DNA of 43,441 nucleotides from the NCBI GenBank assembly GCA_004356735.1, contig SMWR01000088.1, positions 1-43,441 on the forward strand. The letters run 5' to 3'. A program made the position numbers and the translations under genes. How positions within the stretch are numbered: the first letter of the stretch is position 1; each line of letters starts with the position of its first letter. Under the pieces are notes generated by a model. That model was not told the DNA's origin and made no database searches. It saw only the letters and a list, made by a program, of their open reading frames with translations. Source of the stretch: Deltaproteobacteria bacterium (lineage in GTDB: Bacteria > Myxococcota_A > UBA9160 > SMWR01). Below are positions 2,910 through 22,871 of this stretch, one piece after another.

Positions 2910-3623
2910 GCAACCAACCGGCCCAGGCCCGCTTCGCTCAGCGGGATCTCTGCCGACAACATCCACCAGCTCGGACTCGCCTGGTCGTACATGACGGGCA
3001 CAAAGCGCGGGCTCGAGTCGACGCCCCTGGTGATCGACGGTGTGCTCTACGCCACCGGTTCCTGGAGCCGCGTCTACGCCCTTGACGCCGCCAGCGGCCG
3101 CGAGCTCTGGCGCTTCGACCCCGAGGTTCCCGGCTGGAAGGGGCGCAACGTCTGCTGCGATGTGGTGAACCGGGGCGTCGCGGCCTGGAAGGGCCGCATC
3201 TACCTGGGAACCATCGACGGTCGGCTGATCGCCCTGGACGCCGCGACGGGCAAGCCGGATTGGGAAGTCCAGACCACCGACCCCGGGCAGCCCTACTCGA
3301 TCACGGGTGCACCCCGGGTCGTGAAAGGTCGCGTCATTATCGGCAACGGCGGCGCCGACCTTGGCGTGCGCAGCAGTGGCCTTTACCCCGACCTCAGGAA
3401 GTCCTCGCGGGCCGTCCACGACAGCTGGAACGAAATCGTGCTGGGGGGCTCACTCCAGGCTGGAGGAATGGCGAGCTTCGCCGACCACCTGACCGGGAAG
3501 CAAGCCCAGCAGATCCACGCCTACGTCCTCGCCCGCAGCCATCACGAGCCCGGACTGCTCGAGCGGGCTGCCCGCTGGATCGGGCGCTACGCGTGCATCC
3601 CGGTTGCCTGGGCCGCGGACTGA
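2910..3623 (+). pseudogene. PQQ-dependent (methanol/ethanol family) dehydrogenase remnant with a large internal deletion and a degraded 5' end
   Basis: Beta-propeller N-terminal blades are present (..[64 protein letters not shown]). They join near nt 3375 directly to the extreme C-terminal tail ([40 protein letters not shown]). About 450 aa of propeller are missing. There is no signal peptide or start, and an in-frame stop lies at 2907-2909. Confidence 0.65.
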
Positions 3624-3898: not shown

Positions 3899-5089
3899 CT
3901 AGATCCATACCATCAGATCTTCGATTCCCACGACGAAGTTGGCCGGCCGCAATGAAGGGGCCTCTTGGCTTGCAAGCTCGATCTGGGGTATGCGGGTCAT
4001 GAGTTCTTCGAACATGACACGCAGCTCGAGACGGGCCAACGAGCTGCCCAGGCAAAAGTGGCTGCCGTTCCCGCCAAACGCGACATGGGCGTTTGGGCTT
4101 CGTTCGATATCGAATTCGGAAGCGCGCTCGAAGACTTGCTCATCGCGGTTCGCCGCCCCGTATAGCATCAAGACCCGGTCTCCCTCACGGAGTCGTATTC
4201 CTCGCAGCTCGGTGTCTTGCTTGACGGTGCGCATCAGGTTTTGGAGTGGAGTCACCCATCGCAGCATCTCCTCGACGGCGGTGGGGATTTTCGACGGATC
4301 CTCAACCAGCCTGCGATGCTGCGCCGGGTGAAGCAGAAGCTGATGCATGCCACCGCTGATGACATGCCGAGTCGTCTCATCACCACCAATCAGGATCAGC
4401 AGCGACTCCATCAAGATGGATTGATCGTCGAGACGCTGTCCGCCGACTTCGGCGTGCACGAGAATGCTCATCAAATCTTCAGCAAGCGGCTTCGATCTGC
4501 GATCGGCGACCACTGCAGCGTTGTACTGAGCCCATTCCGCGGCGGCGCTGACCTGGCGCTGAAGGAGCACCGGATCGTCGCTGCCGAGTGCGCACATGAT
4601 ATCATCGGACCAGCGCAACAGCCGGTCGTGGTCCTCTGCTTTCACGCCAAGCAAGTCTGCAATCACGCTCATCGGCAGCGGTGCGGCGACCTCGCGAACG
4701 AAGTCGAATGCCTGCTTCCCGCCATACTTCTGCGCGACGTTTTCGATGATCTGGATACAAATCTCACGTATGCGCGGCTCGAGTCTGGAAACCTGCCGGG
4801 GCGTAAAGCCTCGACTGACCAGGCCTCGCCGAATCATATGCTCCGGCCGATCCATACAGGCCATCATCGGCATCGGTGGAGAATCGGGTCGAAAGCCCAT
4901 ATGACTGCCATAGACGTCGGGATTCTTCGAGATCATCGTGATGTCTTCGTGCCGGGACACTGCGTATAGATCGTTCTTCGCATCGTAGTAGACGGGCGCA
5001 TGCTTACGCAGCCATGCATACGAGCGCTGAACATCGTTGGCGTAGAATTCGCCACGCACGAGATCAATGGCGGGGGGGGACTGGGGCAT
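3899..5089 (-). CDS. cytochrome P450
   Basis: Heme loop FGGNGSHFCLGSSLAR, ExxR motif (EEMLRW) and I-helix GGDETT. The start is either ATG 5089 (MPQSPP..) or 5131. Confidence 0.9.
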   Translation of the reverse strand: MPQSPPAIDLVRGEFYANDVQRSYAWLRKHAPVYYDAKNDLYAVSRHEDITMISKNPDVYGSHMGFRPDSPPMPMMACMDRPEHMIRRGLVSRGFTPRQVSRLEPRIREICIQIIENVAQKYGGKQAFDFVREVAAPLPMSVIADLLGVKAEDHDRLLRWSDDIMCALGSDDPVLLQRQVSAAAEWAQYNAAVVADRRSKPLAEDLMSILVHAEVGGQRLDDQSILMESLLILIGGDETTRHVISGGMHQLLLHPAQHRRLVEDPSKIPTAVEEMLRWVTPLQNLMRTVKQDTELRGIRLREGDRVLMLYGAANRDEQVFERASEFDIERSPNAHVAFGGNGSHFCLGSSLARLELRVMFEELMTRIPQIELASQEAPSLRPANFVVGIEDLMVWI

Positions 5090-5222: not shown

Positions 5223-5648
5223 TCATCGCAGCTCGTAGATGTCGTAGACCACGTTCGCGCCGTCCAGTCCTCCGAGCCCGACCGCTTGAATATTGTTGAG
5301 CCAGGCGTATCGCTCGTCCCCGGTCTCGAATAGCGGGGCGCAGCGCGCCTTTAGAGCTCCGTCGACCACGACCCCGATGCCATTGTAGGTTACGAGGATC
5401 ATCGCGTCGTCGTGGGTCTGCAAGGTCAGGCGTACATCCAACTTGATGCTTCCATCGGCCCGTTGGGTGACCCAATCGCCGCCTGGCCCAATCACGGTTC
5501 CGTTCAGCTTCTCGCCTTCAAACTTGCCGCCCTTCACGCCCACCAGCATACGCGTGCCCTGCGGAGCGCCCGGCATCATGGTCGGAGCGCCGTCGGTCTC
5601 GAGCGTGATCTTGAACAGGTGGGTTACCGGTAGGGATGATTCGGCCAT
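5223..5648 (-). CDS. DUF3237 (UPF0311) family protein
   Basis: 141 aa. The ..GGKFEGEKLNGTVIGPGGDW.. and ..FETGDERYAWLN.. blocks are typical of DUF3237. Confidence 0.8.
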   Translation of the reverse strand: MAESSLPVTHLFKITLETDGAPTMMPGAPQGTRMLVGVKGGKFEGEKLNGTVIGPGGDWVTQRADGSIKLDVRLTLQTHDDAMILVTYNGIGVVVDGALKARCAPLFETGDERYAWLNNIQAVGLGGLDGANVVYDIYELR

Positions 5649-5730
5649 CAGGCCTCCTTCGCCGTGTTCGAGGTGGATTGGAAGGTAGCTGGGATCAAAC
5701 CATCCAACGATCGCACGTTAGCCACATTCG

Positions 5731-6048
5731 ATGGCGACGAACAATTGCATCGCTGCGCTGGACGTTGCAATCCTTGCTGATGTCCAGGTGGCCTCGGGGC
5801 ATGAATCGAAACGCGGCAGCGGCTCCCACTCCCATGATCTTCATCGGCCACCGATCCCGAAGGATCCTGGCCTGCCGAGGCACCTTCACCGAGAACAAGG
5901 ACTCGCGGACCACAGGGTCTCTGCCGCGAAGCAGAACCCGGATATCCCGGCAGTCTCGCCCCAGGGCCTGATGCTCTTGGGCGTGACGCTCGTTGCAGCG
6001 ATGTACATCACGCTGCGTCGCACGCGGCTGGGACGCAGCGCGACTTAG
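5731..6048 (+). CDS. hypothetical small Pro/His-rich protein ending in an IPTLxxWG-CTERM-like tripartite sorting signal (speculative)
   Basis: The C-terminus is DIPAVSPQG-LMLLGVTLVAAMYITL-RRTRLGR, that is motif, TM helix, then basic cluster. GC3 is about 70% in a lower-GC stretch. Weaknesses: no convincing N-terminal signal peptide, and the ORF is bounded by a stop at 5719-5721. Confidence 0.3.
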   Translation: MATNNCIAALDVAILADVQVASGHESKRGSGSHSHDLHRPPIPKDPGLPRHLHREQGLADHRVSAAKQNPDIPAVSPQGLMLLGVTLVAAMYITLRRTRLGRSAT

Positions 6049-6689
6049 ACGCGAACGCCCGCCGCGCGTCGTTCGACCAGAAGCCGCCAATCTTCTGGCT
6101 TGAACGCGAGCAGCAGCCACACCAGAGTTGGAACCAGGTAGTAGGGCCCCATCCACAGGCTGAACTGCGCGAACCCGTGCACGATGGCTCGCCAGGGACC
6201 TGCGAGCCAGGGCAGCTGGCTGATCAAGAAGTGGGTCCGCTCGGGTTCGAAGGCTTCGTAGATCTGGAAGGCAGGCATCGCAGCGACGAACATCGTCATC
6301 ATGAGAGCCGCTACGCCGAGCCCAGAGACCCGGCGCTTCCAGGACATGGGGGATGCGAGCATCAGGGCGAGTGCCAGCGCGGTCGGCATGTAACCCGTCG
6401 ATCGGCTGCTGCGAATCGACTGGGTTGCGCCGACTCTCGAGATGCCAGGCGTGCCGGGGATCCGGTGCAGGATCTCCGTATCCATCACCGTGGCAGTGAG
6501 CGGTCGGTTTGGCCGGTAGCGGCGAACGACGACGCTGCGCTGCGGGTCGCTCGAGACGACCGCGATTTGTACGATCGCGCGGTAGAAGCCCCCGTAGGTC
6601 TCCGTGAGGCCGGGCCATGGGGCCATCAGCACGCCGTAGAAGAACACGAAGCGGAGGGCGAAGCCCGCGACCCGCTTAGAGCTGAGCAC
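6045..6689 (-). CDS. polytopic membrane protein of unknown function, translationally coupled to the exosortase-family gene
   Basis: 214 aa with a GTG start that overlaps the upstream stop by 14 nt. It has one N-terminal TM helix (FALRFVFFYGVLMA) and about three C-terminal TM helices flanking a loop of about 90 aa. I recognise no family motif. Confidence 0.65.
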   Translation of the reverse strand: MLSSKRVAGFALRFVFFYGVLMAPWPGLTETYGGFYRAIVQIAVVSSDPQRSVVVRRYRPNRPLTATVMDTEILHRIPGTPGISRVGATQSIRSSRSTGYMPTALALALMLASPMSWKRRVSGLGVAALMMTMFVAAMPAFQIYEAFEPERTHFLISQLPWLAGPWRAIVHGFAQFSLWMGPYYLVPTLVWLLLAFKPEDWRLLVERRAAGVRV

Positions 6690-7239
6690 GTTCCCGTCTC
6701 CGTGTCGCCCACGCGAGCCAGAATCCGAACGAGACGAGTGCGAACGCGATGTACAGTACCTGCCAGACGTCCGTGTGCATCACCACGAACAGTTGCGGAC
6801 GGTAGGCGCCGATCAGGAACAGGCTCACGATTCGTACGATGTTGAGGGCCGCGAGGAGCGGAAGGCAGATCAGGAGCGCGGGCAGTCGGAGCACGAACCG
6901 GGTGGGAAACGCGAACAGAGCCGCCAGGAAGAGCATCATCGGTTCGATGCCGTCGCAGCCTCGGGCCACAGAAACGGCGAAATGATCGGAGAAGATTCTC
7001 ACGCCGTCGGTGTCGACGGCTTCTCCAAGCATCGCGAGGACGTGGGTTGAAAGCAAAGTGTTGATCGCCAGGTAGGGCCCGAATACGTAGTCGTCGTAGA
7101 TGTCTGTAGCGGCGAAGGCGTAGTACGCGCCGAGAATGAGCACGAAGACGCACACCATTCGCAGGAGCAGGCGGTTGGCAACCGCTCGGTCTGCGCTCTC
7201 ACGGGCCGGATCCCCGCCAGAATCATTCTCTTCTGACAA
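6676..7239 (-). CDS. exosortase/archaeosortase family protein, short (exosortase H-like) form
   Basis: 187 aa and multi-TM. Candidate catalytic residues are Cys95 (VARGCDGIEP), Arg136 (LNIVRIV) and His155 (VVMHTDVW). The Cys-to-Arg spacing is 41 aa, as in characterised family members. Confidence 0.75.
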   Translation of the reverse strand: MSEENDSGGDPARESADRAVANRLLLRMVCVFVLILGAYYAFAATDIYDDYVFGPYLAINTLLSTHVLAMLGEAVDTDGVRIFSDHFAVSVARGCDGIEPMMLFLAALFAFPTRFVLRLPALLICLPLLAALNIVRIVSLFLIGAYRPQLFVVMHTDVWQVLYIAFALVSFGFWLAWATRRRERAQL

Positions 7240-7315
7240 AGCAGTCCGAGGCTACCACACGGTCCGGATCGGACGAGAATGGACACGATGTGAGATCACG
7301 AAACGAGCCGGACTC

Positions 7316-9241
7316 CTAGGCCGGCGTGAGTCCGAGCAGGTGCCGCACGCGCCGGGCGACCTCCTCGCCGTCGTCCAGCGTGTTTCCCGGCGCAGCGGGC
7401 AGGCTTACCGATGGCGGAATGATCAAGCCTCGCTCGATCAGCCGCGCGCAAAGATACTCGAGGCCCTGTTGGGGCCGCGTCGTTCCGCGTCGGTTCTTGG
7501 GACGGCTGTTGGCTCGTTTGATCACCCACTCCCGAAGCGGACTCTCGAGGGCACCGACCGGGTCGACGTCATCGAGACGGTCCGACGACGTCTCGATGCG
7601 ATTCGGATGTGGCCAGAGCCGCGCGCCGGCAGGACTCAAGACGGCATCGAACCATTCGGCCACTTCACCGCCGCGAAGTCCCAGCTGGACCAGGCGGGGT
7701 CGTCCGGCGTCCTGGTCACGGATCCAGCGCGCAACGCGGGCACAGCGGCCGCCGGCCGCGATGACCACGTCCGGCCAGGGTCCATCGAGTGGAGACGAAA
7801 CCGCTCGGTCGAGTCCCGTACAACGCGCACCCAGCCATCCCGTCTCGAGACGGCCGATGCCGCGGAAGCGCAGGTCCTTGCGTTGGCACGACCCGCCCAG
7901 CGATTCGCCCAGCGCGAGCGCTTCCCGAGCTTCGGCTTCGTTGTCGTCGCACAGGATCCAGACCCGGGGCGTCCCGGACCAGCAACAGCCTCCCTCTCGG
8001 ACGCTCAGCCGCTGTTCGACGCTGAGGTTCCACTCGCCCAGCACCAGGGTCCAGTGGACGTGCGGATGACGCCGCGCTGCAGTCTCGAAGTGTTCCATCC
8101 ACCAGGACCGATCTCGGGGGGAATTCCGCAGCTCGCTGGCATCGTCGAGTCGGATCGCGTGATCTCCGTTCTCGGCGCCCACGCAAACGAAACGATCGGC
8201 CTGGGCAAAGATCCGATCGATCACCCAAGGCGCATCCTCATCGGGCAGGTACTCGAGCAGCCCGCAGCAGAAGATGCCGTCGCTGCGCTTCTCGAGTGCC
8301 GCAATCGGGTCGTCGCCAAGGCGTAGCTCGAGCAGCGACCCGTTGCCGCTGGCTTGGAGGTCTCGCACGAGACGTCGCGCCAGCTCGTCGTCGACGGCTC
8401 GGGGACGCCGACTGTTCGGACTCGGCGGCGCCTTGCGCAGGCGCTCGAGCAGGGCGAGATAGCCCGGGCTGGGCGCATCGGCGCGGAACACCTGAAAGCC
8501 GACAGCATCGGCCGATCGCTTGAGATCGAACCAGAGATCACCGGTGCGATTCGGCTGATAGACGAAGCGCTTCGGCAGCGGTCGCCAGGGCTGGGTGTGG
8601 AGGGTCGTCCAGTGCTGGAACTTCGACTGGCCACGCACGAAATCGTCGTCACGAGCCGTCCAGACGGAGTCGAGGTCACCTCGAATCCCCGGATGGGCCC
8701 GGATCGAGGGCCCCAGGATCTCCTTCTTGAGCTTCTTCTGGCAGTCTTCGAGCGGCCAGACGGTGGCCATGCGCTGGCAGTCGATCAACATGATCGATGT
8801 CTCGGTGTCGTCGGTCGACAGGAAACCGTGCTCGCCCATGTCGGCGTCGAAGAGTTCGCCCGGGTCCGCAAACCAGGCCATGTCCTCGTCGGTGTAGATG
8901 GCGCGTCCCTGCGCTCCGGCGTAGTGCGGAATTGCGAACCGATAGTTGCTGAAGCCCGTCGTCCAACCGCGCCGATCGAAGCCGGCCAGCTCCTTCAACA
9001 GGAAGATCTCGTAGACCCGGGCGGGATCGCGGTGCTCGAGCACCGACCAGACCAGCACCCGTTCGGGCCGGTACTGCCCCGGCTCGGACCCGATGTAGAT
9101 CCGCACCGGCGGCTTGCCGTTCGGCGCCACACCGTCGGCGACGCCGTAGGTGATCCGGGCGGGCTGCCGGGTATTAAAAGCCAGGCGCGAATCCGGCGGA
9201 TTCAGGAACCGCAGCTTCGAACGCAGCTCGAGAAATGCCAT
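7316..9241 (-). CDS. multidomain protein: GT8-like glycosyltransferase, then a degenerate methyltransferase-like segment, then an ELM1/DUF1022-like domain
   Basis: N-terminus: FSNYRFAIPHY..AIYTDEDM (GT-A fold with a DxD-type motif). Middle: LLEYLPDEDAPWVIDRIF..RFVCV, with no intact SAM-binding Gly loop. C-terminus: PRVWILCDDNEAEAREALALGESLG..PWPDVVIAAGGRCARVARWIR (ELM1-family signature). Confidence 0.75.
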   Translation of the reverse strand: MAFLELRSKLRFLNPPDSRLAFNTRQPARITYGVADGVAPNGKPPVRIYIGSEPGQYRPERVLVWSVLEHRDPARVYEIFLLKELAGFDRRGWTTGFSNYRFAIPHYAGAQGRAIYTDEDMAWFADPGELFDADMGEHGFLSTDDTETSIMLIDCQRMATVWPLEDCQKKLKKEILGPSIRAHPGIRGDLDSVWTARDDDFVRGQSKFQHWTTLHTQPWRPLPKRFVYQPNRTGDLWFDLKRSADAVGFQVFRADAPSPGYLALLERLRKAPPSPNSRRPRAVDDELARRLVRDLQASGNGSLLELRLGDDPIAALEKRSDGIFCCGLLEYLPDEDAPWVIDRIFAQADRFVCVGAENGDHAIRLDDASELRNSPRDRSWWMEHFETAARRHPHVHWTLVLGEWNLSVEQRLSVREGGCCWSGTPRVWILCDDNEAEAREALALGESLGGSCQRKDLRFRGIGRLETGWLGARCTGLDRAVSSPLDGPWPDVVIAAGGRCARVARWIRDQDAGRPRLVQLGLRGGEVAEWFDAVLSPAGARLWPHPNRIETSSDRLDDVDPVGALESPLREWVIKRANSRPKNRRGTTRPQQGLEYLCARLIERGLIIPPSVSLPAAPGNTLDDGEEVARRVRHLLGLTPA

Positions 9242-9265: not shown

Positions 9266-9982
9266 TCAGTAGGTCTCGGTGCCCCGCTTGCGGCGGCCGG
9301 AAAGGAGGCGGCGGGTCCATCTCCAGTCGTCGACGACGACGATGAAGACCTTGCGCATGGCGTCCTTGGGGCACTTGATCTCGCGTACGGTGTGCCAGGC
9401 GTGGGCCATGCGCTGGAAGATGAAGCTCATGTTGTCGATCGTACTGGCCGCGATGGAGCCGTCGAAGTCTTCGATGGCCGGCGCGCTGCGGTGACCCAAG
9501 CGGCCGCCATCGTCGAGCACGATCGTCTCGCCACCCCAGCTCGGATCCCAATCCCGGGACGTGTTCATGTAGAAGATGTGGGAGCCCAGCTTGTGCGTGG
9601 AATCGCAATGGGGCGAGACCGAGCAGCCGTTCGGCGTGTAGTGCCAGTGAAAGCGCAGCTTGAAGGAGCCGTGACCGAACAAGCGGGCCAGGAAGGCCCG
9701 GTAGCGGTCGCTGGTGAGCTCGCCGACGAATCTCTTCCAGGGCTGGGCCACGTCGACACCCTCGACGTATTCGAGATTGAACCGGTCGTGGCTCTGCTGC
9801 CCAAAGCGGCGTTCACGGCCGAAGTCCGGGGCGAAGCGCGAGACCTCGGGAAGGGTCGCCACCAGCTCCTCGAACGCCTGCTGCCGCAGCAAGCCGGCCG
9901 GGTTGATCCACGGGTAGGGCTGCTGTTGCTGGAAATCGTTTGCGTCGATGGCGTCGAGCCGATCCCAGTCGAGATACGACAT
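9266..9982 (-). CDS. 2OG-Fe(II) oxygenase superfamily protein (prolyl-4-hydroxylase-like)
   Basis: The HxD..H facial triad context is present (SPHCDSTHKLGSHIFYMN..WGGETIVLDD..RMAHAWHTV). The start is ATG 9982 (MSYLDW..); the upstream ORF extension is Arg-rich and implausible. Confidence 0.7.
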   Translation of the reverse strand: MSYLDWDRLDAIDANDFQQQQPYPWINPAGLLRQQAFEELVATLPEVSRFAPDFGRERRFGQQSHDRFNLEYVEGVDVAQPWKRFVGELTSDRYRAFLARLFGHGSFKLRFHWHYTPNGCSVSPHCDSTHKLGSHIFYMNTSRDWDPSWGGETIVLDDGGRLGHRSAPAIEDFDGSIAASTIDNMSFIFQRMAHAWHTVREIKCPKDAMRKVFIVVVDDWRWTRRLLSGRRKRGTETY

Positions 9983-10140
9983 GTTGGCCGGTCCCCCCGT
10001 TCGGCATCGGAGTCTAACGCTGCGGCGGGAATCGCGAATGCGCCGGAAAGGAACAGCTTCTCCCCGCGGGGTCAAGAGCCGCATGAGGCCGCCACACGCT
10101 AGGCTCGCGGCCGCGCCGTTCCAACCCCGCAGGTGATCCG

Positions 10141-11241
10141 ATGAGCGACTTTCCGGCCTTCCCCAGCGCACGACCCGTCACGATTCCCGCACATCCCAGC
10201 GAAAAGGGGACCCCGCTTGCCGAGATCACGCTCTCGGTTCACGACGCTGGAACGGGTCCGACCGTCGTGCTGTGCCACGGCTGGCCCGAGATTGCGTTCT
10301 CGTGGCGCAAGCAGTTCGGGGCGCTGGTCGACGCCGGCTTCCGGGTGATCGCACCCGACATGCGTGGGTTTGGCGCCAGCGACTCCCCTGAGGTCATCGA
10401 AGCTTTCGACCTCGAGCACCTGACCGGCGATCTCGCCGGCCTGCTCGACGTGCTCGGCATCGATGAGGCCGTCTTCGTCGGACACGACTGGGGCGGGTTC
10501 GTCGTCTGGGCGATGCCCATCGCCTACCCCCAACGCACCGCGGGTGTCATCGGCGTGAACACACCGTACGTGCCCTTCCCCTCAACCTCGATGTTGCGGC
10601 GTCTGTTCGAGGACACGGAGAAGCTCTACATCCTATGGTTCCAGCGCCCTGGCGTCGCCGAGGCCGTGATGGACCGCAACCCCCGCGTCTTCTTCCAAAA
10701 GATCATGCGCTACCCCATCGAGCCCAACGGCCCAGCCATGATGACGGCGGGCGGCGACATCGACGCGAATCCGTTCCGGCACGTCGAAACGCTGGAAGAC
10801 CGCGGCGAAGTGCTTCTCACGGAGCCGGAGCTCGACACCTACACGCGCGCCTACGAGAAGGCCGGCTTCCGCGGTGGTGTGAATTGGTACCGGAACATCG
10901 ATCGCAACATGGGACTCTATCCGGGCATCGGCAGTCAGAAGCTCGATCTGCCCTGCTTGATGGTCACATCGGAATGGGATCCCGCGCTGCCGCCGACACT
11001 CGCGGCCGGCATGCCGATGGTCTGCAGCGATCTCGAGACACACCAGATCGCAAAGTGCGGCCACTGGACCATGCAGGAGAAGCCCGAAGACCTGAACCGC
11101 GTCATGGTCGACTGGCTCGGCCGTCGCTTCTCGAGCAAAGGGCTGGCCGCCGGAGCGGCGGCTGTCCAAGGAACAGCTTGCAGTTCGCCGGGGCGGCGAA
11201 CTGCGGGGGGTCGCGCAGAGCGCGATCCTTCGGATCGCTAG
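10141..11241 (+). CDS. alpha/beta hydrolase, epoxide-hydrolase-like
   Basis: HGWPE oxyanion motif and GHDWGG nucleophile elbow. An AGGTGAT Shine-Dalgarno sits before the ATG. The last ~45 aa are low-complexity, so the 3' end is uncertain. Confidence 0.85.
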   Translation: MSDFPAFPSARPVTIPAHPSEKGTPLAEITLSVHDAGTGPTVVLCHGWPEIAFSWRKQFGALVDAGFRVIAPDMRGFGASDSPEVIEAFDLEHLTGDLAGLLDVLGIDEAVFVGHDWGGFVVWAMPIAYPQRTAGVIGVNTPYVPFPSTSMLRRLFEDTEKLYILWFQRPGVAEAVMDRNPRVFFQKIMRYPIEPNGPAMMTAGGDIDANPFRHVETLEDRGEVLLTEPELDTYTRAYEKAGFRGGVNWYRNIDRNMGLYPGIGSQKLDLPCLMVTSEWDPALPPTLAAGMPMVCSDLETHQIAKCGHWTMQEKPEDLNRVMVDWLGRRFSSKGLAAGAAAVQGTACSSPGRRTAGGRAERDPSDR

Positions 11242-17853: not shown

Positions 17854-18711
17854 TCACGCGGACAAGAATTCGACCGCCTCCCGCGCGAACTCGGGGCCGT
17901 CGTAGTCCACGGGAACCACATGGGCCGAGTTCTCGAGAATCCGATGTTTCCGCCGCTCGGACCGAACGGCATCGAAAATCTCCTTTGAATCCGAGGGGTC
18001 GGCGGTCCGATCGTGGGCCCCGTGGGCCACCAGGATGGGCGTCTCGATCCGACCGAGTGCGCGCCGCACGACGTTCTGGAAGTGGATGAGCTGGTGCACG
18101 GCCGCCAACGGCATCACCTCGTAGCTGGGGTGACGAGCGCGGGCCGCCGGATCCCGGATGTCCGAGCCGGTTGCCTTGCGGGGAAAAGGCAGCAGGTATT
18201 TCAGGACCGGAATCAGCAGCGGCAATGGCTGACGCAGGCGCAGTGGTGTCCCCACCACCACCGCCCCATCCACGGCAGCCTCCGCGGACAGGGCCAGCGC
18301 GACCAACCCGCCCATGGAGAGTCCCGCGACGAACACCCTGTCGTGCTGCTTGCGCAGCCGCTCCACAGCGTCCCGGGCCGCTCCCAGCCACTCCGTATAT
18401 TTCACACGCGCCAGCGCCTGGGGCGTCTCGTTGTGGCCCGGCAGCGCTGGGCCAAACGCCCGGTAGCCGGCTTGTGCGAAGGCCTCACCGAGTGAGCGCA
18501 TCTCGTAGGGCGTCCCCGAGAGACCATGAAGACACAATATTGCGTCTCTCCCGGATCCCGGAAAGTCGAACGGCGCCGGATCGACCCGGACTTCAGTCGA
18601 GGTCACGTCCGGCTTCTTCGGCGGCTTGGACCACCTTGCGCAAGGGAACCTGCTTGCTTCGCGCGAGTCGCTTGCAGTCATCGTATTCGGGCGAGACCGA
18701 AACGCGCCCAT
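17854..18711 (-). CDS. alpha/beta hydrolase (carboxylesterase/lysophospholipase-like)
   Basis: LCLHGLSG oxyanion region and GLSMGG nucleophile elbow. The annotated ATG at 18711 would overlap larC by 119 nt, so a GTG at 18606 (14-nt overlap) is a plausible true start. Confidence 0.8.
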   Translation of the reverse strand: MGAFRSRPNTMTASDSREASRFPCARWSKPPKKPDVTSTEVRVDPAPFDFPGSGRDAILCLHGLSGTPYEMRSLGEAFAQAGYRAFGPALPGHNETPQALARVKYTEWLGAARDAVERLRKQHDRVFVAGLSMGGLVALALSAEAAVDGAVVVGTPLRLRQPLPLLIPVLKYLLPFPRKATGSDIRDPAARARHPSYEVMPLAAVHQLIHFQNVVRRALGRIETPILVAHGAHDRTADPSDSKEIFDAVRSERRKHRILENSAHVVPVDYDGPEFAREAVEFLSA

Positions 18712-19837
18712 CGAGATCGAACACGCGCTTCACGCGAACGCGACCGTACGTCGTGTCGACCCTCCGGACTTCGCGTTTCAGGATGATGCGGTCGCTCTCG
18801 GTGACGCGCACGCCGATGGCGGTCGATTCCGCGAACAGGATGCGTGCCAGCGAGATCCGATCCGACGGATGGCCCAGGACGCGCACCAGGTGACCCGGGC
18901 GATTCTTCTTCATCTGCAGGGGTTGGACCGATACGTCGAGGGCGCCGACCTCGAAGAGGCGCTCCATCAGATAGTCGAAGTGCTCGGGCACGAGATCGTC
19001 CAGGTTCGTCTCGAGCACCACGATCCGGTCCGAGCCAGCTCCGACACTGCGCCCCAACACCGCACGCAGCACGTTCGGCATGGGTCCCGGCCGATCGTTT
19101 CCGGCACCCAGACCGATCGACTCGATGGTGAGCGCGGGCAACGGACCGTAGTCTTCGACGATCGTCTTGAGGATCGCGGCCCCGGTGGGCGTCACGGTCT
19201 CCCAGTTGACGTGGGCGGGCACGGTCGGAACCCCGCGCAGCAGCTCGAGGGTCGCCGGCGCCGGCAAGGGCAGTCGGCCGTGCTCTGTCTCGACGCTTCC
19301 TTCGCCCAGGGCCACTGGCGATGAGGTCACCCGGTCGATCTCGAGACGGGCCAGCCCGATGGCGGCCCCGGTCACGTCGACGATGGCGTCGACCGCCCCC
19401 ACCTCGTGGAAGTGCACCTCGTCGACCGGCTTGCCGTGGACCCTCGCCTCGGCTCGGGCCAGGGCCTCGAAAATGGCGATCGCGCGCTCACGAACGCCGC
19501 CGTCGAGGCGGGCACGCTCGAGGATCTTCACGATCGCGCCGAAGGACCTGCCGTGGTGGGGATGCCCGTGGGAATGTTTCCGAGCCGCCGACTTCTGCTT
19601 CGGTCGCGCCCTGGGGACGCCGACGTCGACGTAACGGGCGGCCAGCGCGCCGCGCTTCACCTTCCGCACCTTGAGGCTGAATTCCAGATCGAGTCCGGCC
19701 AGATCGCCTTCGAGCTCCTTTCGCTTGAGACCCAGGTCGAGCAGTGCGCCCAGAAACATGTTTCCGGCGATTCCCGAGAAACAATCCAGGTGCAGGGTTC
19801 TGACGCCCGATCTCTCCACACGCCGGGACGCGCCCAT
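18593..19837 (-). CDS. larC: nickel-pincer cofactor biosynthesis protein LarC (nickel insertion), single fused ORF
   Basis: LHLDCFSGIAGNMFLGALLDLG opening and a His-rich HSHGHPHHG loop (DUF111 family). The start is ATG 19837, or 19888 with a 29-nt overlap of larB. Confidence 0.9.
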   Translation of the reverse strand: MGASRRVERSGVRTLHLDCFSGIAGNMFLGALLDLGLKRKELEGDLAGLDLEFSLKVRKVKRGALAARYVDVGVPRARPKQKSAARKHSHGHPHHGRSFGAIVKILERARLDGGVRERAIAIFEALARAEARVHGKPVDEVHFHEVGAVDAIVDVTGAAIGLARLEIDRVTSSPVALGEGSVETEHGRLPLPAPATLELLRGVPTVPAHVNWETVTPTGAAILKTIVEDYGPLPALTIESIGLGAGNDRPGPMPNVLRAVLGRSVGAGSDRIVVLETNLDDLVPEHFDYLMERLFEVGALDVSVQPLQMKKNRPGHLVRVLGHPSDRISLARILFAESTAIGVRVTESDRIILKREVRRVDTTYGRVRVKRVFDLDGRVSVSPEYDDCKRLARSKQVPLRKVVQAAEEAGRDLD

Positions 19838-19859
19838 CCGACCCGTGCGACGCACGGGA

Positions 19860-20609
19860 CTAGAGTCGGTTGATAAGCGTCGCGACATAGGCGGCCCCGA
19901 AACCGTTGTCGATGTTCACCACAGTTACGTTGGAGGCACAGCTCGTCAGCATGCCCAGCAGGGCCGCGACACCGCCGAACGCGGCCCCGTAACCCACGCT
20001 GGTCGGAACGGCGATGACGGGCTTGTCCACCAGACCTCCGACCACCGATGGCAGGGCGCCTTCCATGCCGGCCACCGCGATCAGGACCCGCGCACTCCGC
20101 AGCACGTCACTCGACGCCAGCAACCGGTGCAGACCGGCAACACCCACGTCCGTCAGGACCTCGACCTTGTTTCCGAAGCGGCGAGCGACGCCTGCGGCTT
20201 CACTCGCCACAGGCAGATCCGAGGTCCCGGCACAGATGATGGCGATGGTGCCCTTGCCGAGCAGGGGCGGCTCGGCCGGTCCGTACCAGAGCAGGCGCGA
20301 CTTCTCGTCGTAATCACCGGCGCCCACCCGTTCGGCGACATGCCCTGCCACGTCGGACTCGACCCTCGTCGCCAGCACGTCCTGACCCGCATCGCGAATC
20401 GCCCGGACGATGTCGGCGATCTGATCCGGCGTCTTGCCCGGCGCGTAGATCACTTCTGGCAAACCCGCTCGCAGGGCTCGGTGGGTATCCACCCGGGCGC
20501 CGGGAACGTCCACGAACGGCAGACGCGCAATTCTCTCCAGTGCGTCATCGAGGGACACGTCACCCTGCTGCACGCCCTCGAGAAGCCGTCGCACCCGTTC
20601 GCGGTCCAT
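19860..20609 (-). CDS. larB: nickel-pincer cofactor biosynthesis protein LarB (AIR-carboxylase-like)
   Basis: N-terminal ..DVSLDDALERIARLPFVD..ARVDTHRALRAGLPEVIYAPGKT.. followed by a PurE-like C-terminal half (IAIICAGTSDLPVA). Confidence 0.9.
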   Translation of the reverse strand: MDRERVRRLLEGVQQGDVSLDDALERIARLPFVDVPGARVDTHRALRAGLPEVIYAPGKTPDQIADIVRAIRDAGQDVLATRVESDVAGHVAERVGAGDYDEKSRLLWYGPAEPPLLGKGTIAIICAGTSDLPVASEAAGVARRFGNKVEVLTDVGVAGLHRLLASSDVLRSARVLIAVAGMEGALPSVVGGLVDKPVIAVPTSVGYGAAFGGVAALLGMLTSCASNVTVVNIDNGFGAAYVATLINRL

Positions 20610-20630: not shown

Positions 20631-21170
20631 TCAGATCACGTCCGGGGCGATCACCAGGAGTGCGCGGCGCGCACCGTTGGGCTCGCAGAGATCGATCTCA
20701 CTGGCGATGCCGGCGCTTCCCTTGCGACGTTCGAAGAGCAGACTCCCGAACGCATCGTCCACTGAATCTCCAACCAGGATCGGGACCGAGATCGTAATGC
20801 GGTCACCGAGATGGTCGGCCACCGAGGACATCGCACGGGAGGCGACGATGTTGCCAACTTCGCGCAACACCGAGTGGGCCATGAGGCTGTTGGGATCAAC
20901 GCCCGGACACAGCAGGTCGATCACCGATTCGGCGCCCTTGGGTGGCAGGAACAGCGCAATCAGGCCCTGAACCGCACCCTCCATTTCGAAGATCACACCG
21001 GTTGCGCCCGCACCCATCTCTTCCACGGTAGCGGCGCGCACCCGCGGCTCGTGGGCGTGAAGATCGCTGCCCAGAATCGCCGAGATGGCCGAGGCCGCGC
21101 TGGCGGCGCTGATCTGCGCGATCTCGCGCATGCGGCCAAAAGCGGCGAAGAGCTCTTCGCTGGTCGTCAT
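20631..21170 (-). CDS. CheC-family CheY-P phosphatase (single intact active-site motif)
   Basis: Exact [D/S]-x3-E-x2-N-x22-P motif: SVLREVGN + 22 residues + P. The first-half motif is degenerate. An ATGA overlap links it to the cheA core stop. Confidence 0.7.
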   Translation of the reverse strand: MTTSEELFAAFGRMREIAQISAASAASAISAILGSDLHAHEPRVRAATVEEMGAGATGVIFEMEGAVQGLIALFLPPKGAESVIDLLCPGVDPNSLMAHSVLREVGNIVASRAMSSVADHLGDRITISVPILVGDSVDDAFGSLLFERRKGSAGIASEIDLCEPNGARRALLVIAPDVI

Positions 21171-22405
21171 GCCAGCTGATTCTGGTCGAGCACGAATACG
21201 GGCCGACCATCTCCCAGAATCGTGAGTCCGGCGAGCGCGCGAAGGGTCGAGAGCAGCTCCGGAACCGGCTTCACGTAGATCTGTTGCTGACCCGACACCC
21301 TGTCGGTCCGAAGGGCAATTCGCTCACCGCGAACGTCAGTGAGGATCAAGGTGACGACGCTGTCCCGCTCTCCGCCTACCGGTTCCTCAGATTCGTGTTC
21401 GCGGCCGTCGTCGAGCGCAAGCTGTGCGGCCAGATGGAGCACAGGAATCGGATCGTCATCGATCAGAACGAAGGACTCGTGGCCTGCCGTCTCGATCTGG
21501 TCGGAGTGGACTTCGAGGATGCGCTCAACCCGTGAGATCGGCAGCGCTACGGTCTCGTTCCCCAGGGCCAGCAGCAGAACGCGCTGGACCGCGGCCGTGA
21601 TCGGAACCGTCAACGTGGTGGTGGTGCCGCGCCCGGCCTCGGTAACGATCTCGACGCTGCCACCCAGCGACTCGATGGTTACCCGCACGGCGTCCATGCC
21701 GACACCGCGCCCGGAAATCGCGGAAACGGTCTCGACGGTCGAGAACCCGGGGAGGAAGACGAGGGCGACCAGTTCGTGGGGAGGCAGGTCCTCTGCGAGG
21801 TCCGGATGGAGCAGGCCCTTCTCGACCGCGCGGGAGCGCACCGCGTCGAGGTCCATACCGCGACCGTCGTCTCGCACCGAGATCTGGATCGAGTCCTTTA
21901 CGCGGCGGGCCTCGATGTCCAGACGTCCGATTTCCGGCTTGCCAGCTTCGAGCCGAGCCTCGGGGGTCTCGATGCCGTGATCGACGGCGTTTCGGATCAG
22001 GTGGACCAGGGGATCGCTGAGACGGTCGAGAATCGAGCGGTCCAGCTCGAGCTCGCCGCCCTCGATGTGGACCTGCACCCGCTTGCCGCTGAGTTGGGCG
22101 ATGTCTCGCGCCATGCGCGGCAGAAGCTCGACGATGCGGAGCAGGGGTGTCGTCCGCAGGTCGAGGGCACGCAGCTGGAGTTCGCCGACGACCCGATCCA
22201 TGCGGTCGAGGCCCGTGCCCAGATCAGCGTTGCGCTCGGGCCCGTCGCCAGCAGCCGCGGTTCGGACTTGGCTGGTGTTGAGGATCACTTCGCCCACGGT
22301 ACTGAGGAAGCGGTCCAGCATTTCGGTCTTGACGCGAACCGTCGGCGGCGGCTGCGGTGGGACCACCGTCTTGACGGGCGGCGGGGCGGGCGCGGGGCCC
22401 TTCAT
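21167..22405 (-). CDS. cheA: chemotaxis histidine kinase CheA, core part (P3 dimerisation, P4 HATPase, P5 CheW-like); lacks P1 and P2
   Basis: Pro-rich linker, then LDRFLSTVGEV. N box HLIRNAVDHGIE, G1 VRDDGRGMD, G2 GRGVGMDAV, and a CheW-like C-terminus. It lies in the +1 frame relative to the upstream Hpt ORF. Confidence 0.9.
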   Translation of the reverse strand: MKGPAPAPPPVKTVVPPQPPPTVRVKTEMLDRFLSTVGEVILNTSQVRTAAAGDGPERNADLGTGLDRMDRVVGELQLRALDLRTTPLLRIVELLPRMARDIAQLSGKRVQVHIEGGELELDRSILDRLSDPLVHLIRNAVDHGIETPEARLEAGKPEIGRLDIEARRVKDSIQISVRDDGRGMDLDAVRSRAVEKGLLHPDLAEDLPPHELVALVFLPGFSTVETVSAISGRGVGMDAVRVTIESLGGSVEIVTEAGRGTTTTLTVPITAAVQRVLLLALGNETVALPISRVERILEVHSDQIETAGHESFVLIDDDPIPVLHLAAQLALDDGREHESEEPVGGERDSVVTLILTDVRGERIALRTDRVSGQQQIYVKPVPELLSTLRALAGLTILGDGRPVFVLDQNQLA

Positions 22406-22438
22406 CGCAGCGAGTCCTACATCGTCATCGGAGGAGGC

Positions 22439-22477
22439 CGCCGCTACTCGAGTAGCGGCGTCACGACTTTTTTTTTT
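22439..22477 (-). promoter_or_regulatory. A10 homopolymer + 6-nt spacer + perfect 22-nt palindrome at the Hpt/kinase junction of cheA (slippage or recoding candidate)
   Basis: mRNA sense reads CAA AAA AAA AAG UCG UGA followed by CGCCGCUACUCGAGUAGCGGCG. The A10 tract is 22468-22477 and the palindrome is 22439-22460. Confidence 0.6.
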
Positions 22478-22871
22478 GGCACTCCGCGGGAGCGATGGGC
22501 GTAGCCAGTGCGTTGACGAGGTCGGGGTTGGGCGGTGGAGACTCGCCAGTCTGCCGCACGACCTCGATCATTGCCTCGAGCCCTTCCATGCCCTTGAACA
22601 CGAGTGTCAAACCCTCTGTACCGTCCACACCACCGGCACTCCGGATCTCCTGCATCCGATCCTCGAGAACGTGGGACACTTCGGCGATCGAGTCGTATTC
22701 CAGAGACGCCGCCATCCCCTTGATGGAATGGGCCATCCGGAACAGCACGTCGATCGCATCGGCGTGCTCGGTGTCCTTCTCGAGATCGAGAAGCGCCCGG
22801 CTCATGTCCGCGAGGTGCTCGGTGGCATCCTCGAGGAAGACCGCGCGGTACTTGGTCATGTCGAGGGCCAA
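22461..22871 (-). CDS. cheA: CheA P1 (Hpt) domain ORF, terminated just after an A10 tract
   Basis: Hpt signature ..DVLFRMAHSIKGMAASL.. The TTG start abuts the cheY stop; an alternative ATG is at 22859. The ORF ends ..ECQKKKS*. Confidence 0.85.
   Translation of the reverse strand: MALDMTKYRAVFLEDATEHLADMSRALLDLEKDTEHADAIDVLFRMAHSIKGMAASLEYDSIAEVSHVLEDRMQEIRSAGGVDGTEGLTLVFKGMEGLEAMIEVVRQTGESPPPNPDLVNALATPIAPAECQKKKS

Follow-up and report, generated by a model that had tools for sequence, protein, structure and literature searches.

Exosortase systems occur widely among environmental diderm bacteria and have been little studied. Among those described, the closest to the genes reported here is exosortase H (XrtH, model TIGR04177), in whose canonical loci a curated membrane protein (NF041730, XrtH_assoc) is encoded at the same position after the enzyme; the coupling of enzyme and partner is therefore already curated. 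Elsewhere in the superfamily, mutagenesis that PMC9263693 summarises showed that archaeosortase A (ArtA) of Haloferax requires both Cys173 and Arg214 to be active. We have analysed contig SMWR01000088.1 over 43,441 nt with 65.6% guanine plus cytosine (GC), hereafter called the window, in which two overlapping minus-strand genes encode an exosortase-like protein of 187 amino acids (aa) and a membrane protein of 214 aa, its partner. We consider it probable that these two genes make up a protein-sorting module of exosortase H type, in which the partner, an exosortase paralogue, is the proposed non-catalytic subunit. The window pair is a divergent member of the known XrtH system, and the coupling itself is already known; what may be new is how widely the unmodelled partner family extends, and that it derives from an exosortase whose conserved Cys and His were lost. 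The genes of the pair are as follows.

6676-7239 (-): XrtH-like exosortase gene, 187 aa, TTG start, supported by codon-position GC and profile matches.
6045-6689 (-): partner membrane protein gene, 214 aa, GTG start, supported by its family, by synteny and by hhalign.
6676-6689 (-): overlap of the two genes, 14 nt, between the exosortase stop and the partner GTG start.

Both open reading frames (ORFs) were re-found with the coordinates, the lengths, the GTG partner start and the 14-nt overlap given by an earlier reading made from the window's letters alone (the sequence-only reading). They are regarded as genuine genes because their GC content at the first, second and third codon positions (0.65/0.41/0.76 for the exosortase gene and 0.63/0.50/0.82 for the partner gene) follows the pattern of the real genes of the window. 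The 14-nt overlap suggests translational coupling. An overlap of the same length is found in L003, L007-L011, L016 and L020 (loci are designated by our L numbers and partner relatives by P numbers), and in other XrtH loci the exosortase gene and the downstream gene overlap by 4 to 29 nt. A promoter and terminator scan of positions 5400-7500 was uninformative.

As had been proposed from the letters, the 187-aa protein belongs to the exosortase family: it exceeds the cut-offs of both TIGR04178, the exosortase/archaeosortase signature (53.3 bits, cut-off 23), and PF09721 (34.9 bits, cut-off 25.7). The best subfamily model is TIGR04177 (XrtH) with 79.3 bits, below the curated cut-off of 86, followed by XrtM and XrtX at 57; the guess of a short, exosortase H-type enzyme is thus borne out in that XrtH is the closest subfamily. 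The exosortase relative of L004 scores 98.0 bits on the same model. A word-indexed database search with the protein returned only 25 relatives, several of which, at 38-43% identity, carry the Joint Genome Institute (JGI) name 'exosortase H (IPTLxxWG-CTERM-specific)'. The putative active site consists of three residues.

6955-6957 (-): Cys95, motif VARGC95DGIEP, putative active site.
6832-6834 (-): Arg136, motif LNIVR136IV, putative active site.
6775-6777 (-): His155, motif VVMH155TDVW, putative active site.

All three, together with Pro112, Asn133 and Trp159, are invariant across an alignment of 20 homologues reaching down to 26% identity, and the Cys/Arg/His conservation assumed beforehand is confirmed. 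Cys95 and Arg136 lie 41 residues apart, a spacing identical to that of Cys173 and Arg214 in ArtA (PMC9263693). The AlphaFold2 (AF2) model (predicted local distance difference test, pLDDT, 91.6) consists of two N-terminal transmembrane (TM) helices, a small sheet and three long helices, with the three residues at helix ends. A PDB sequence search and Foldseek searches of the AF2 models of both proteins against PDB gave no meaningful match (best E 0.95).

The partner, which the sequence-only reading had called uncharacterised and in which it recognised no motif, can be described more fully on both counts. Pfam and NCBIfam scans of the protein, and Pfam scans of eight of its relatives, returned no match. 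A profile built from eight close homologues and searched against 1.84 billion sequences retrieved 908 cluster representatives at E <=1e-3 (430 at E <=1e-10), nearly all of them full length at about 200 aa and, where the source gives any name, called 'hypothetical protein'; this family is moreover a remote homologue of the curated NF041730. Its own motifs are PWPG, SRxxGYxPT, ATPxPWxRR and FRRxDW. The family conserves PWPG (24-27), Tyr32, Asp70, Ser/Thr95-Arg96 and Gly99-Tyr100-x-Pro102-Thr103, and also Pro114, Trp117, Arg119-Arg120, Gly127, Trp191 and FRRxDW. Several of the polar positions are near-invariant (Arg96 in 129/146 sequences, Ser or Thr95 in 125/146, Asp70 in 92% and Tyr32 in 96%). 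A precomputed Pfam label, PF28117.1, is attached to the partner relatives P0097, P0196, P0200 and P0204, the window's protein being without it, and part of the family may already be covered by a more recent release of Pfam. The AF2 model of the partner (pLDDT 83.7) places helices at 4-22 and 28-45, a three-stranded sheet at 53-93, and helices at 95-112, 117-147, 160-178, 181-195 and 198-209. The shape proposed from the letters, an N-terminal TM helix, a long extracytoplasmic segment and C-terminal helices, was thus roughly right, and the model refines it to seven helices and a sheet.

The order exosortase then partner, on the same strand, is found in every contig fetched, including all 7 distinct metagenomic contexts; these contigs comprise the window lineage, relatives at 87-89% and at 64-69% identity, L003, L085 and the JGI XrtH locus. 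In every partner-clade locus examined the partner lies directly downstream of the exosortase, which upholds the expected synteny. The two genes overlap in most contigs; L001/L002 and L088 have instead a gap of 106-168 nt. The partner gene of L003 is split into ORFs of 131 and 90 aa, probably by a frameshift.

A survey with one genome per species yielded 63 loci with an XrtH-like gene, spanning Myxococcota, Planctomycetota, Verrucomicrobiota, Bacteroidota, Acidobacteriota, Chloroflexota and many Proteobacteria; the closest of them is a Myxococcota locus whose exosortase is 54% identical. Culturable bacteria in which XrtH was encountered are Thiocapsa roseopersicina DSM 217, Gilvimarinus gilvus, Luminiphilus syltensis NOR5-1B and Dokdonella sp. 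MW10. A window-type partner is encoded directly downstream of the XrtH-like gene in 12 of these loci, distributed over Myxococcota, Planctomycetota, Verrucomicrobiota and Bacteroidota. In most proteobacterial loci, the end of the exosortase gene is overlapped by the gene of a protein of about 200 aa. Six of these proteobacterial XrtH neighbours match NF041730 (37.5-208 bits, cut-off 35), and a hidden Markov model (HMM) built from these proteins places the NF041730 type at the same position in 34/63 loci. Neither partner type was found in 17/63, several of which are cut by contig ends. Loci with no detectable partner of either type include L045, L052 and L053 (Dehalococcoidia) and L026, L037, L044, L055, L057, L059 and L061 (Rhodanobacteraceae/Dokdonella). 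Neither HMM matched in L021 and L023, where an overlapping downstream ORF of 172-176 aa is present; this ORF may represent a further type of partner, diverged even more than the other two.

The two partner types are connected by profile comparison. With hhalign, the window-type family aligned with the NF041730-type proteins at 95.9% (E 5e-9) over 187 columns, that is, over essentially their full length. On this alignment the window partner belongs with the exosortase H-associated membrane proteins, as a divergent branch that the models in the libraries used do not detect. The partner type follows the exosortase tree: by neighbour joining, the 17 exosortases with a window-type partner fall within one clade of 19 and the 34 with an NF041730-type partner within another clade of 44, and exosortase and partner pairwise distances are correlated (r = 0.85, the pairs not being independent). 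A match at 97.8% obtained with hhalign -M 50 was rejected as spurious, being due to N-terminal extension columns that came from a handful of sequences, P0162 among them, which are mis-called or fused.

The partner also resembles the enzyme itself. With first-sequence columns, hhalign aligned the partner profile (146 sequences) with the exosortase profile (88 sequences) at 96.5% (E 7e-10, score 65.7), pairing partner residues 93-195 with exosortase residues 91-175 and so spanning the catalytic core and the last helix; the reversed template scored 16.3 and 20 column-shuffled templates at most 16.9. The exosortase HMM matches about 100 partner proteins in a single register, a few of the alignments starting at the N-terminal helices (P0118, residues 12-136 to HMM positions 14-129, and P0130). 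The partner of L004, which stands beside a bona fide XrtH, matches the XrtX model (E 3.7e-5, 120 residues), and the AF2 models of enzyme and partner agree in the succession of their elements, a pair of helices being followed by a three-stranded sheet and further helices. Where exosortases have the catalytic Cys, the aligned partner column shows Tyr, His, Ser or Leu, and no column of the 146 sequences holds a conserved Cys. The position equivalent to the active-site His is variable; His peaks, at 48%, in column 132, which is not aligned to His155. The position equivalent to Arg is Arg or Lys in 90/146 and Met in the window's clade. We conclude that, as judged by these profiles, the partner is a remote and ancient exosortase paralogue devoid of conserved Cys or His, and that it is probably a non-catalytic subunit.

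A search for natural fusions of exosortase and partner gave a single doubtful, truncated case, P0162 (259 aa), in which an exosortase core (HMM positions 69-136) is followed by a partner domain in one chain; this chain may be a true fusion, or it may have arisen artificially through a frameshift or the end of a contig. Tentatively, we raise the possibility that minimal XrtH-type exosortases work only as heteromers, an active protomer being joined by a pseudo-exosortase paralogue that supplies the substrate- or acceptor-binding half carried in-chain by larger exosortases. If so, the partner family, with at least 908 clusters, would constitute a widespread pseudoenzyme component of the sorting machinery that has gone unrecognised.

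The way in which such a pair might work can be sketched by analogy with other exosortases and archaeosortase A. The 187-aa protein would be a minimal polytopic membrane cysteine transpeptidase with Cys95, Arg136 and His155 near the outer face of the inner membrane. It would recognise exported proteins anchored by a C-terminal tripartite signal, presumably an [IV]P[TA][VL]xx[WQ]G motif followed by a TM helix and an Arg cluster, cut within or beside the motif by way of a Cys-acyl intermediate, and hand the mature protein to an acceptor. The partner is probably made together with the enzyme, because its start overlaps the enzyme gene. It keeps the exosortase fold and core helices, the conserved Cys and His (and, in the window clade, the Arg) being absent, and would act as a non-catalytic subunit of a heteromeric sorting complex, with a possible part in holding the substrate or acceptor or in stabilising the minimal enzyme.

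Concerning cargo, the sequence-only reading had found no PEP-CTERM gene family in the window and had left the cargo open. A six-frame scan of the window for C-terminal TM-plus-basic tails detected the exosortase's own C-terminus and one further tail only, in an unannotated ORF.

5731-6048 (+): 105-codon ORF, unannotated, convergent with the partner gene (4-nt overlap), filling the gap up to the DUF3237 gene.
5944-6045 (+): IPTL-CTERM-like tail of this ORF, its last 35 residues, comprising IPAVSPQG, a TM helix and RRTR.

The tail peptide is NPDIPAVSPQGLMLLGVTLVAAMYITLRRTR and the C-terminus of the ORF is DIPAVSPQGLMLLGVTLVAAMYITLRRTRLGRSAT. Tails of the motif-TM-RR kind occurred 18 times in the real loci, never in 200 shuffles of the window and never in 830 kb of reversed loci; because none arose in either control, the tail is taken as a genuine sorting-signal sequence rather than a product of chance. 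With the tail of an L085 secreted protein it shares 50% identity, and the L085 cargo matches the window in the tail alone. The earlier statement on PEP-CTERM genes must thus be amended by one IPTL-like tail, encoded in a doubtful ORF, and the cargo is now only partly open: clade relatives bear [IV]P[TA][VL]xxWG-TM-RR tails, and one such tail adjoins the window pair. Next to the enzyme, L004 encodes a cargo with an IPTVTEWS tail that matches PF18203, while L012 has VPTVSEWG and L015 has this tail three times. Two genes upstream of its exosortase, L085 encodes a protein of 268 aa that has a typical signal peptide and a VPAVREWG tail and ends VPAVREWGLVLLGLGLLAQMAYVIRRRLRSAAL. The small ORF may be a minor cargo or a relic, and the genome probably encodes the regular cargo at another place, as in the Myxococcota locus L011, where no cargo gene adjoins the enzyme.

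NF033207 (Midcut-by-XrtH) is defined by an IPTL-like signal in mid-protein, about 175 aa and at least 45 bits. The small ORF gives 14.6 bits (E 0.026) against this model, under its cut-off of 45 and over the C-terminal tail only. The partner gave no match to it, and was rejected as a 'midcut' substrate, since in addition its N-terminal helix is preceded, not followed, by basic residues.

Several observations weigh against an exosortase H-type module. The partner has no match to the NF041730 model at E <=1 (cut-off 35 bits) and the enzyme narrowly misses the XrtH cut-off, so that membership of both families rests on remote homology and synteny. The NF041730-type proteins gave no significant hhalign match to exosortases (3.8%), and the paralogy link therefore runs via the window-type clade only. 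A literature search on XrtH, IPTL-CTERM and the model accessions returned, from the library searched, nothing relevant and no experimental study of XrtH; catalysis, cleavage site, acceptor and physical complex are for that reason all inferred, the mechanism being taken from the superfamily. Moreover, L003:114-2870 (-), at a distance of 1.3 kb from an exosortase that shares 57% identity with that of the window, encodes a 918-aa signal-peptide protein with a PEP-CTERM-like AVPEPGVV-TM-RRR tail, ending AVPEPGVVTTLLPGAVLLGILGRRRMRS, and in four verrucomicrobial loci the gene that immediately precedes the exosortase encodes 340-530 aa with a D[VAE]PLL[SG]-TM-basic tail, at the following positions.

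L013, ~4760-4885: verrucomicrobial tail.
L019, ~4490-4615: verrucomicrobial tail.
L020, ~5690-5815: verrucomicrobial tail.
L028, ~1480-1603: verrucomicrobial tail.

D[VAE]PLL[SG] may be a variant sorting signal of the partner-bearing clade, and in view of these differing tails the signal recognised by the window enzyme is not fixed. The same tails, together with the score under the XrtH cut-off and the separation of the window-type clade from the proteobacterial XrtH clade in the tree, would suit an enzyme that is functionally not XrtH, that is, a separate short subtype with a signal of its own (PEP-like VPEP or PLLS) and alike through its small size only. We regard this as quite unlikely, since XrtH leads the other subfamilies by more than 20 bits, IPTL-type tails stand beside the enzyme in L004, L012, L015 and L085, the partner is homologous to the XrtH-associated protein and the window tail reads IPAV...G. 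As for the partner, its near-invariant polar residues are predicted to face the periplasm, and their conservation goes beyond expectation for a mere scaffold. It might then be an enzyme itself, or an acceptor carrier, with non-Cys chemistry through Ser/Thr95-Arg96, Asp70, Tyr32 and Tyr100, for example a transferase completing attachment after the exosortase acyl intermediate. However, no known catalytic motif or family match was found in Pfam or NCBIfam, and the homologous exosortase chemistry requires a Cys, which is absent, the equivalent of the Arg being Met in the window clade; such a role seems to us improbable. It is hardly credible that the partner is a mere conserved neighbour with an unrelated membrane function, given that the overlap of start and stop is kept across phyla and that the partner is homologous to the exosortase and co-inherited with its tree.

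The small ORF raises the further question of whether it is a dedicated cargo, which would make the locus a self-contained three-gene system. Its tail is not a chance product and lies immediately beside the pair, adjacent dedicated cargo genes occur in other XrtH loci, and its codon-position GC (0.69/0.49/0.72) is the best of the six frames, if only moderately gene-like. On the other hand, it has no predicted Sec signal peptide and no ribosome-binding site, its body is His-rich and of low complexity, a homologue exists for the tail only, and gene finders left it uncalled in ten near-identical contigs, among which a selection test met no informative substitutions. It is also absent in the relatives at 87-89% identity, where the PQQ (pyrroloquinoline quinone) dehydrogenase/cytochrome c gene ends at that position. 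A dedicated cargo is for these reasons unlikely, and a pair of exosortase and paralogous partner, serving cargo probably encoded in the main elsewhere, is the reading that we retain.

The pair sits outside any exopolysaccharide (EPS) locus. Pfam or NCBIfam scans covering 36 window proteins revealed no Wza/Wzc/Wzx-type export gene, so the absence claimed in the sequence-only reading holds across these proteins. The remainder of the window is metabolic or housekeeping in character (cytochromes P450, a luciferase-like monooxygenase, Lar-type nickel cofactor genes, chemotaxis genes, lon, hrcA, dnaK and dnaJ), and one window protein has a TIGR02266 domain, typical of Myxococcota. This domain, the closest genome loci and the named relatives all indicate that the window most likely comes from an uncultured myxococcotal bacterium. 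Two genes precede the pair on the same strand.

7316-9241 (-): 641-aa protein with a C-terminal ELM1-like (glycosyltransferase GT-B type) domain, upstream of the pair.
9266-10171 (-): 2-oxoglutarate (2OG)-Fe(II) oxygenase-like protein, upstream of the 641-aa protein.

Both accompany the exosortase pair in close relatives (L007, L074 and L084) and not in more distant ones. The N-terminal region of the 641-aa protein, judged by eye, resembles a GT8-type glycosyltransferase with a DxD motif. Further along the window, the Lar-type and CheA genes occupy 18593-20609 (-) and 21167-22871 (-). A gene for a LarC-like nickel insertion protein adjoins a LarB-type gene resembling aminoimidazole ribonucleotide (AIR) carboxylase, and CheA is apparently split into an Hpt-only ORF (136 aa) and an ORF with the dimerisation, ATPase and CheW parts (412 aa).

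On the other side of the pair, L085, L007 and L087 encode a PQQ dehydrogenase a short way downstream. Compared over window 5650-9240, L007:7071-7600 and L087:1630-1847, the window lineage differs from its relatives at 87-89% identity by about 3 kb inserted between the genes of the partner and of the PQQ dehydrogenase. The inserted stretch comprises the small ORF with the sorting tail, DUF3237 and a P450, and synteny with these relatives ends directly after the partner stop codon. At 2991-3623 (+) the window encodes a PQQ beta-propeller fragment of 210 aa. The corresponding gene of the near-identical contig L074 encodes 635 aa with two PQQ domains and a cytochrome c domain, and L077 has pieces of 152 and 58 aa. 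The window thus appears, from these gene lengths, to have undergone a deletion of about 1.3 kb or to carry a truncated PQQ dehydrogenase.

As far as its significance is concerned, the XrtH-associated partner extends beyond the curated model into Myxococcota, the Planctomycetota-Verrucomicrobiota-Chlamydiota (PVC) phyla and Bacteroidota, and about 900 protein clusters that at present go under the name hypothetical would gain a better annotation. The pairing of an active enzyme with a pseudoenzyme is, in addition, a concrete hypothesis open to test.

Among known systems, the pair compares best with XrtH and its IPTLxxWG-CTERM signal (TIGR04174/PF18203), with which it shares an enzyme of about 160-190 aa, the Cys/Arg/His signature, an overlapping membrane-protein gene downstream and, in clade relatives, nearby cargo with [IV]PT[VL]xEWG-TM-RR tails. 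It differs from this system in that the window clade is found in Myxococcota, the PVC phyla and Bacteroidota, not in Proteobacteria, in the score of 79.3 bits where 86 are required, and in the window tail IPAVSPQG, which has Ala for Thr and Gln for Trp. The partner resembles NF041730 in its position and strand directly after the exosortase, its length of about 200 aa and its architecture, whereas its family has the four motifs of its own given above and leaves that model unmatched. With ArtA of Haloferax volcanii the enzyme has in common the family signature and the 41-residue Cys-Arg spacing (PMC9263693), but ArtA is larger, archaeal, PGF-CTERM-specific and without a known paralogous partner subunit. 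Finally, the XrtA/EpsH system with EpsI and PEP-CTERM proteins (Haft 2006, PMC1569441) belongs to the same superfamily and likewise combines a tripartite C-terminal signal with a fused or adjacent accessory protein. XrtA, however, has at least 8 TM segments and is found in EPS loci with many PEP-CTERM genes, where the window has a minimal enzyme in a metabolic locus, and the accessory protein, EpsI-type in XrtA systems, is here a paralogue of the exosortase itself.

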